This document shows, piece after piece, positions 59,522 through 61,303 of a DNA stretch of 64,000 bases. The DNA comes from Escherichia coli. Lineage in GTDB: Bacteria; Pseudomonadota; Gammaproteobacteria; Enterobacterales; Enterobacteriaceae. Below the pieces are notes generated by a model, which searched no databases, was not told the origin of the DNA, and saw nothing but the letters and a program-made list of their open reading frames with translations. The DNA lies in assembly GCF_050320075.1 (NCBI RefSeq), contig NZ_CP190018.1; one strand, given 5' to 3'. A program made the position numbers and the translations under genes. Within the stretch, counting starts at the first letter, position 1; every line of letters begins with the position of its first letter.

Positions 59522-61303
59522 TCAGGCGCTCAATGATTCCTCTTCACGCACGCTGGCTGCCAGCTCTTCGCCCGCAAGTTGCAGTTGATACATCTGCCAG
59601 TAGCGTCCCTGGGCCGCCAGCAGTTGCTGGTGAGTACCCTGCTCCACGGCTTGCCCACGATGAAGCACCAGAATGGTGTCGGCATCAACAATGGTCGATA
59701 AGCGGTGAGCAATCACCACCAGCGTGGTATGTTCACGCACCGCCGCCAGAGCATGTTGAATCGCCTGTTCAGTACCGGAGTCAATGCTGGCGGTTGCCTC
59801 ATCAAGGATCAGGATTTGCGGCGTCTCCACCAACACGCGTGCCAGTGCCAGCAGTTGCTTTTGCCCGACTGAGAGATTATTCCCCTGCTCGCCAAGCGGC
59901 GTGTAAATACCGTCGCTCATGCTACGCGCCAGCTCCGCCAGTTGCACGGTTTCCAGCGCCTGCCAGACGCGTTCTTCGGAGATATCACGCCCCAGCGTCA
60001 CGTTGGCGAGGAAGGTATCCGCCAGCACCACCGGATCTTGCTGCACCATTGCCACGCCCTGGCGCAGCGCGCTGTGACTTAGCGAACTTAATGGACGACC
60101 ATCAAGGCGAATCTCACCTTCCGTTAGCGGGTAATAGCCCATCAATAAACTGGCGAGGGTGCTTTTGCCACTGCCGGTATGCCCGACCAGTGCCACAAAG
60201 TTACGCGAAGGCACAGAGAGATTAATGTTCTTTAGCACCAGATTGTCATCGCGATAAGCAAATGACACGTTATCGACTTCGATGGTGCCGCTCTGTAACG
60301 GGCGATCATCATTGCCATATTGCTGGCGCGGTCCGTCCATCAGTTCAAACACACGCTCACCAGCAACTACAGCCTGTTGCAGCATCGCCTGCTGCGTGGT
60401 CAGTTCGATTAATGGTTCGTTAAGTCGCCCAAGATAGCTGATAAATGCATACAACACGCCCACTTCAATGGTGCCGCTGGCGGAGAAGCCAAACAGCATC
60501 AACAACCCACAAAGAATGAGCGATGAAAACAGACTCAGCAGCGGACGCAGCAGAAAACCGTCGAGGCGCAGGGTTTGCATCCTCGCCATATAGTGTGAAC
60601 GACTGGCCTCACCCATACGTTCGCCAAATCGCGACTGCTGACGGAACTGCTGGATAACGCTCATGCCATTGATGATTTCGTTAAAGCCGTCGTTGATATC
60701 TGCCAGATAAGCGCGTACACGGCGGACGATCGGCGTGCTGTAACGCTGATATATCACCATTACCACCAGCACCACCGGGAAAATCATTATCGCCACCAGC
60801 GCCATTCGCCAGTCGAGGCTGAACATCGACACCAGCATCGCGCCCACCAGTGCGGCGCTACGCAGGACAGTTGCCACTACGGTAACGTAGAGGTCGCGGA
60901 TCACTTCAGTGTCATTAGTGACGCGGGAAATCACCTGCCCGACGGGTTGGGTATCAAACTCGCTTAATGGCTGGCGTAACGCAGCATCCATCACGTCGGT
61001 ACGCAACTGTTGCACTACGCCTACTGCCGCCCGATTAAACAGCAGCGACTGCGCGTAATGTAGCCCGGCGGCAAACAGTTGCAGCCCAACATACGCCGCA
61101 GCCAGCCCTGCAACCACTTTCAACGGCAGGTTATTTTTCGCTACCATATTGTCGATAAAATAGCTGATAAGCAGCGGCCCACTGACTTCTGCCGCTGCCG
61201 CAACCCACATCATCAGGACCGCAATCCCCAGCGGTTTACGCCACGGCGAACCGTACGCTAACAGACGCTTGAGAGTCGGCCACAGTTGGCTAAAACTACG
61301 CAT
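59522..61303 (-). CDS. mdlB: ABC exporter permease/ATPase MdlB
   Basis: 593-aa product starting [21 protein letters not shown] with Walker [10 protein letters not shown] and ABC signature LSVGQKQ; start codon overlaps the mdlA stop. Confidence 0.9.

Follow-up and report, generated by a model that had tools for sequence, protein, structure and literature searches.

Where does mdlB begin, and does the way in which it adjoins mdlA link its translation to that of the upstream gene? Both questions are raised by the mdlA/mdlB junction in a 64,000-nucleotide stretch of Escherichia coli DNA (contig NZ_CP190018.1; the window in what follows). The open reading frame called mechanically for mdlB (59522..61417) starts at a GTG, whereas an ATG 38 codons further 3′ in the same frame, at 61303, lies inside the end of mdlA. 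A sequence-only reading of this DNA had chosen the ATG, had used the resulting overlap as an argument for it, and had taken the overlap to imply translational coupling.

The junction and its annotation

On the minus strand the sequence around the junction reads ...GAGGAGGCCGTTGATGCGTAGTTTTAGCC..., and direct read-out of 61303..61296 gives the octamer ATGCGTAG. This octamer contains both the mdlB ATG (61303-61301) and the mdlA TAG (61298-61296); the mdlA frame ends in ...E-E-A-V-D-A-stop. The overlap, coordinates, codons and frames described by the sequence-only reading were all correct, and RefSeq agrees. Annotation was compared in two E. coli genomes, CFSAN061763 (100% identical at the junction) and the divergent SCU-306. 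In the fetched loci of both, PGAP places mdlA at 1633..3405 and mdlB at 3398..5179, which is the same 8-nt overlap, and names the products SmdA-family and SmdB-family ABC transporter permease/ATP-binding proteins. The features of the locus and of its surroundings are collected in Table 1.

Table 1. Features of the mdlA/mdlB locus and of the rest of the window
Feature	Position	Strand	Basis
mdlA/mdlB overlap, 8 nt, ATGCGTAG	61296..61303	minus	sequence; identical RefSeq annotation
mdlB Shine-Dalgarno AGGAGG, 6-nt spacer to ATG, in mdlA codons E-E-A	61310..61315	minus	duplex -11.8 kcal/mol
mdlB CDS, 593 aa, SmdB-family half ABC exporter	59522..61303	minus	NF008056; Walker B ILILDE, signature LSVGQ
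mdlA CDS, 590 aa, GTG start, SmdA-family half ABC exporter	61296..63068	minus	NF008055; ILILDD, LSGGQ
GTG opening the mechanical 631-aa ORF, rejected mdlB start	61415..61417	minus	SD -3.2 kcal/mol; profile; orthologues
TTG in frame, one codon 5′ of ATG, rejected mdlB start	61304..61306	minus	3-nt SD spacer; TCG in K-12 and SCU-306
decR (cyuR/ybaO), first gene of the decR-mdlA-mdlB unit, 29 nt 5′ of mdlA	63098..63556	minus	annotation; operon in PMC11408624
Terminator-like hairpin with T-run, 35 nt past the mdlB stop, probable operon end	59460..59487	minus	consensus scan only
Bidirectional terminator-like hairpin between tnpA and decR	63678..63696		
IS200/IS605-family tnpA between cof and decR, runs off the window end	63778..64000	minus	present in the lineage, absent in SCU-306
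siiEA, giant BapA-related adhesin gene, 20.8 kb, truncated at the window start, occupies the first quarter	1..about 16900	minus	collinearity
dnaX programmed-frameshift element	about 38690..38750		collinearity with annotated genome
SRP RNA gene ffs	55387..55483		collinearity with annotated genome

The same genes (b0448 and b0449) with the same octamer are listed for K-12 in the catalogue of Huber et al. 2023 (PMC10666635), whose supplement records them as NGHB#430, distance -8, complex yes. Compared with K-12 the present locus shows allelic differences only; the codon directly before the ATG is GTT (Val) here and GTC in K-12, and this change creates a non-conserved in-frame TTG. Given the identical RefSeq annotation, the published initiation maps and the published catalogue, the overlap is not new: it is real, conserved, previously annotated and ordinary.

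The 801-nt junction region matches 5377 of 5426 complete genomes, with 100% identity to CFSAN061763. The mdlAB allele (60900..61700) is a minority one, since identity over the 801 nt is at least 99% in 336 of the 5377 matching E. coli genomes and 95-99% in the rest. The window as a whole is collinear with CFSAN061763 (10 mismatches in 52.7 kb, followed by 10.5 kb of identity). An IS1 of ~775 bp that splits pdeB in CFSAN061763 is absent here (about 53465..53475); pdeB is therefore expected to be intact, and the window stems from a different, if very close, strain.

The start codon of mdlB

Five in-frame codons at or above the ATG were considered as candidates: GTG 61417, ATG 61408, ATG 61405, TTG 61306 and ATG 61303. 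Only the last two are preceded by a Shine-Dalgarno (SD) sequence. The duplex of AGGAGG with the 3′ end of 16S rRNA is far more stable than those of the three upstream candidates (-2.1 to -3.2 kcal/mol); ATG 61408 and ATG 61405 were also rejected as mdlB starts. Counting both strands, only 0.1% of the window's 1838 ATG triplets have so strong an SD, and within mdlA it ranks first of 116 NTG triplets.

One of these mdlA triplets, the out-of-frame ATG at 61880..61882 (minus), has the third-strongest SD-like duplex (-10.9 kcal/mol). No ORF of at least 60 aa begins there in the ORF list, and the GGAGG in front of it is probably a chance match in coding sequence.

Family models place the N-terminus at the ATG. 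Residues 1-583 of the 593-aa MdlB align with positions 1-583 of the 584 of the SmdB equivalog profile NF008056 (1182.2 bits, cut-off 746), and residues 1-589 of MdlA with positions 1-589 of the 590 of the SmdA equivalog profile NF008055 (1265.7 bits, cut-off 845); both proteins thus belong to these families. In the 631-aa form of MdlB the match to NF008056 begins at residue 39 and amounts to 1181.9 bits; nothing is gained from the 38-codon extension. MdlA and MdlB are paralogous from residue 1 of each (MRLFAQL and MRSFSQL). In MdlB relatives of ~590 aa and 35-53% identity the alignment begins within the first 10-30 residues, and a conserved N-terminal extension was found in none of the relatives or family models, a set of related proteins that is not exhaustive.

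Orthologous loci were then compared. In a scan of a genome collection (23-sequence alignment) the matches listed were mostly distant ABC exporter pairs with 30-45% identity, besides six Enterobacterales loci. Each of the eight orthologous pairs examined has a start codon, ATG or GTG, opposite Met1 of E. coli, with an SD-like element in front of it (-5.6 to -12.7 kcal/mol). The distance is -8 nt in four genera: Citrobacter werkmanii (ATGCGTAG), Enterobacter sp. Bisph1 (ATGCGTAA), Photorhabdus caribbeanensis (ATGACTAA) and Acerihabitans arboris (GTGCGTAA). It is -4 nt in two, Providencia vermicola (ATGA) and the 53% identical GCA_023151555.2, in which the called genes overlap. A short gap separates the genes in the remaining two, the small-genome symbiont Ca. 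Pantoea edessiphila (+13, with AGGAG in the gap) and a symbiont with a 0.53-Mb genome, GCA_964059005.1 (+5). The mdlB frame is closed by a stop a short distance upstream of the start in Providencia (3 nt), Ca. Pantoea edessiphila (9 nt) and Photorhabdus (12 nt); in Citrobacter it opens only at -93, with a stop inside the would-be extension. The alignment with orthologues that had been proposed as a check of the start thus favours the ATG.

The codon pattern of substitutions between E. coli and Citrobacter points the same way. The final 120 nt of mdlA contain 32 differences, 19 of them in the third position of mdlA codons; identity is 31/40 in the MdlA tail and 15/38 in the putative MdlB extension, which contains a stop. 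Just 3′ of the ATG, mdlB third positions account for 21 of 28 differences, and identity in the protein is 34/38 (residues 4-41). Because the pattern follows the mdlA frame only upstream and the mdlB frame downstream, coding constraint in the mdlB frame starts at the ATG.

Ribosome profiling, which had also been named as a check, is available for K-12 from published work. In INRI-seq of MG1655 the annotated mdlB start at position 470636, which is the A of the mdlB ATG, was 'identified' in five of five replicates (peaks 18.2, 15.8, 28.7, 19.6 and 17.6), and in vivo Ribo-RET (Meydan et al. 2019) gave an 'identified' peak of 13.4 at the same start (PMC9825163 Table S2). The synthetic mdlB transcript used in INRI-seq contains just 30 nt 5′ of the ATG (ACGCTCCGGAAAATCGCGAGGAGGCCGTCG-ATG...; PMC9825163), and the upstream GTG is therefore absent from it. 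Table S3 of PMC9825163 lists no non-annotated initiation sites in mdlA or mdlB. In the TRAINSPOTTER N-terminomics supplement MdlA and MdlB have no entry.

With this evidence we regard initiation at ATG 61303 and not at GTG 61417 as practically certain. The SD, the family profile, the orthologues, the codon-position pattern and the published initiation peaks bear out the choice made by the sequence-only reading. Its argument from the overlap fails, as the overlap does not discriminate between the starts: initiation at 61417 would merely lengthen it to 122 nt. That longer, 631-aa MdlB has in its favour that the mechanical ORF opens with this GTG and that the extension is free of stops in E. coli strains. 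We give it next to no credence, since the GTG lacks an SD, the extension brings no profile score, its substitutions track the mdlA frame alone, the frame is interrupted in Citrobacter and shut directly upstream of the start in Providencia, Photorhabdus and Ca. Pantoea edessiphila, and no orthologue or family model in the related-protein set has such an N-terminus. Initiation at TTG 61306 (594 aa, 11-nt overlap) is very improbable. It would use the same SD (-11.2 to -11.8 kcal/mol), but with a spacer of just 3 nt and a weak start codon, and the TTG, which is TCG in K-12 and SCU-306, is missing from all other genera. Initiation further downstream, at ATG 61213 or 61210 (MdlB residues 31/32), would turn the overlap into an annotation artefact. 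These two in-frame ATGs have a modest SD-like duplex (-5.8 kcal/mol), yet we consider such a start extremely unlikely: residues 1-30 are conserved, with the third-position substitutions described above, L14 is nearly invariant in the 23-sequence alignment down to 35% identity, the SmdB profile begins at residue 1, and the INRI-seq and Ribo-RET peaks were scored at the annotated ATG. The preferred start thus remains ATG 61303, and the standard 593-aa call is right.

Translational coupling across the overlap

The mdlA and mdlB genes appear, from the sequence, to be co-transcribed. A cyuR-mdlAB operon has been described (PMC11408624). Consensus scans revealed a promoter-like site before decR and no promoter for mdlB within mdlA; site counts were at shuffle expectation. 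Near the junction the only terminator-like match (61471-61454) is a weak 5-bp stem lacking a T-run. Downstream of mdlB a gap of 180 nt separates it from glnK-amtB. An Rfam scan of 59000..63700 gave no matches.

The spacing places the gene pair in a recognised class. NTG start codons rule out overlaps of 2 and 5 nt (PMC10666635), which makes 8 nt the shortest overlap in the relative frame of mdlA and mdlB. Overlaps of -4 nt (~45%) and -1 nt (~15%) dominate (PMC3887535), and -8 nt (NTGNNTGA) is the third enriched spacing that has been recognised (PMC12548453). Of the co-directional E. coli pairs lying -8 to +10 nt apart, 30.4% code for partners in a heteromeric complex, as against 6.8% of those more than 20 nt apart (PMC10666635), and for this range of distances the E. 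coli enrichment for such complexes is 4.5-fold (PMC10666635, PMC12548453). Being co-directional and spaced at -8 nt, mdlA and mdlB fall within the distance range of the termination-reinitiation class; for -8 nt overlaps this mechanism is predicted, with reportedly less efficient re-initiation than at -4 or -1 (PMC10666635). Like the coupled short-overlap pairs (trpB-trpA and the -4/-1/-8 class; Huber et al. 2019, 2023), mdlA/mdlB has stop and start within 8 nt and the SD in the upstream gene, and the products of those pairs, as predicted here, form one complex. It differs from them in its rarer phase and in the lower efficiency of re-initiation reported for that phase. The junction can be read as a textbook-type -8 nt overlap between subunits of a heteromeric complex.

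The explanation that we find best overall, and hold to be very likely, has mdlB begin at ATG 61303, where its first 8 nt coincide with the last of mdlA. A single decR-mdlA-mdlB transcript would carry both genes; the mdlB ribosome-binding site is embedded in the final seven mdlA codons. A ribosome terminating at the mdlA TAG would have its P site on GCG, 2 nt downstream of the register of the mdlB AUG, and re-initiation would then need a minimal backward shift of a 30S subunit held by the SD. The strong SD also supports de novo initiation. Together the two routes would tie MdlB output to MdlA output, which makes sense since the proteins look like an obligate heterodimer.

That coupling really contributes to mdlB translation is, in our analysis, rather more probable than its absence. 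'Implying' coupling from the 8-nt overlap, as the sequence-only reading did, was an overstatement; coupling is plausible. It is not required, as mdlB is initiated on a synthetic transcript without upstream translation and gives a retapamulin peak in vivo. Nor does coupling seem to depend on unfolding of the RNA by ribosomes on mdlA. A hairpin of this kind is unsupported, as the folding of the 121-nt junction RNA does not exceed that of shuffled controls (z = +0.66). Control does not look simply 1:1 either. The annotated GTG start of K-12 mdlA shows no peak in any INRI-seq replicate or in Ribo-RET (PMC9825163), and the mdlB start has peaks in both. In the window the mdlA start (63066..63068) is a GTG with a weak AGGA upstream; the missing peak probably reflects weak initiation rather than a wrong start, because the SmdA profile fits from residue 1.

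These observations also fit a different view, in which the genes are packed neutrally and mdlB is initiated only de novo at its own SD, with no meaningful coupling. The autonomous initiation in INRI-seq, the Ribo-RET peak, the lack of inhibitory RNA structure and the detection of the mdlB start but not of the mdlA start all agree with it. Moreover, simulations without selection reproduce overlap-length distributions (PMC3887535), and the length of the junction drifts between orthologues (-8, -4, +5 and +13). We nevertheless judge neutral packing rather unlikely. All eight orthologous junctions lie between -8 and +13 nt, that is, within or just beyond the predictive range of -8 to +10 nt. Across 1695 prokaryotic genomes, the spacing of adjacent COG1132 (MdlB-type exporter) pairs has its median at -3.4 nt (q1 -7.4, q3 0.9, n=2371; PMC10666635 supplement); this published distribution was used because heuristic start-picking in the distant exporter pairs was too noisy for statistics. 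All native short-overlap pairs tested in E. coli and Haloferax were coupled, and the conserved asymmetry of the predicted heterodimer offers a selective reason for linked synthesis. A further reading holds that the cell deliberately produces more MdlB than MdlA, or produces MdlB independently, and that the conserved -8 junction tunes a ratio other than 1:1 or allows a separate role of MdlB. It draws on the strong autonomous mdlB site as against the weak-SD GTG of mdlA, undetectable in both data sets, and strikes us as improbable.

MdlA and MdlB as a predicted heterodimeric exporter

Both products contain PF00664 and PF00005, the architecture of half-transporters, and their genes are co-directional and, in every orthologous locus, adjacent. 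The ATP-site motifs of the two are asymmetric in a complementary way. MdlA lacks the catalytic Glu after Walker B (ILILDD) and has a canonical LSGGQ signature, and MdlB has ILILDE and the deviant signature LSVGQ. In exporters of the TM287/288, BmrCD and LmrCD type such asymmetry means one consensus and one degenerate ATP site. The heterodimeric type IV exporters TM287/288, BmrCD, LmrCD and TmrAB share with MdlA/MdlB the loss of Glu in one subunit, the deviant signature in the partner and the adjacent co-directional genes. Seven orthologous pairs, reaching down to 49% identity, retain the asymmetry (DD or DN in MdlA; DE together with LS[VAI]G[QE] in MdlB); in Photorhabdus only the MdlB motifs were readable, mdlA being cut off in the locus. 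On account of this complementary asymmetry, the kind found in heterodimeric exporters with a degenerate site, MdlA and MdlB resemble the two halves of an obligate heterodimer in which one ATP site is of the consensus type and the other degenerate. Such a heterodimer would provide a reason for near-equimolar, linked synthesis.

A PDB search returned no MdlAB structure; the best solved relatives were BmrD/YheH and ABCB1, and the heterodimer is predicted here from sequence motifs. The nearest functional parallel is SmdAB, the heterodimeric multidrug exporter of Serratia marcescens after which NF008055 and NF008056 are named. MdlA and MdlB match both models end to end, and SmdAB and MdlAB are each encoded by two adjacent half-transporter genes. 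In contrast to SmdAB, the drug-efflux role in E. coli and the requirement for both subunits are unsettled (PMC11408624).

The best distant relatives of MdlB in a 50%-identity representative library are mostly proteins of ~1200 aa that match MdlB twice, the best match lying in the C-terminal half for many and in the N-terminal half for others. In such proteins the two exporter halves are fused, which fixes their ratio at 1:1 and offers another solution than a pair of adjacent half-transporter genes.

The anatomy of the junction has a practical side. The mechanical 631-aa ORF is unfit to represent MdlB, and the value of settling the start is mainly one of annotation quality. In-frame deletions of the Keio collection reportedly leave six C-terminal codons and the stop codon. 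A Keio-type ΔmdlA should therefore retain the mdlB ribosome-binding site, since the last 21 nt of mdlA (61296..61316, minus; GAGGAGGCCGTTGATGCGTAG), in which the mdlB SD and ATG both lie, are left behind. The retained site is relevant to how ΔmdlA and ΔmdlB phenotypes are read against each other in a phenotype screen in which ΔmdlB did not phenocopy ΔmdlA, a result that counts against coupling and from which its authors suggest that the two may act independently (PMC11408624). As a modestly useful by-product of the present analysis, the conserved MdlA/MdlB asymmetry speaks for an obligate heterodimer and against such independent action.
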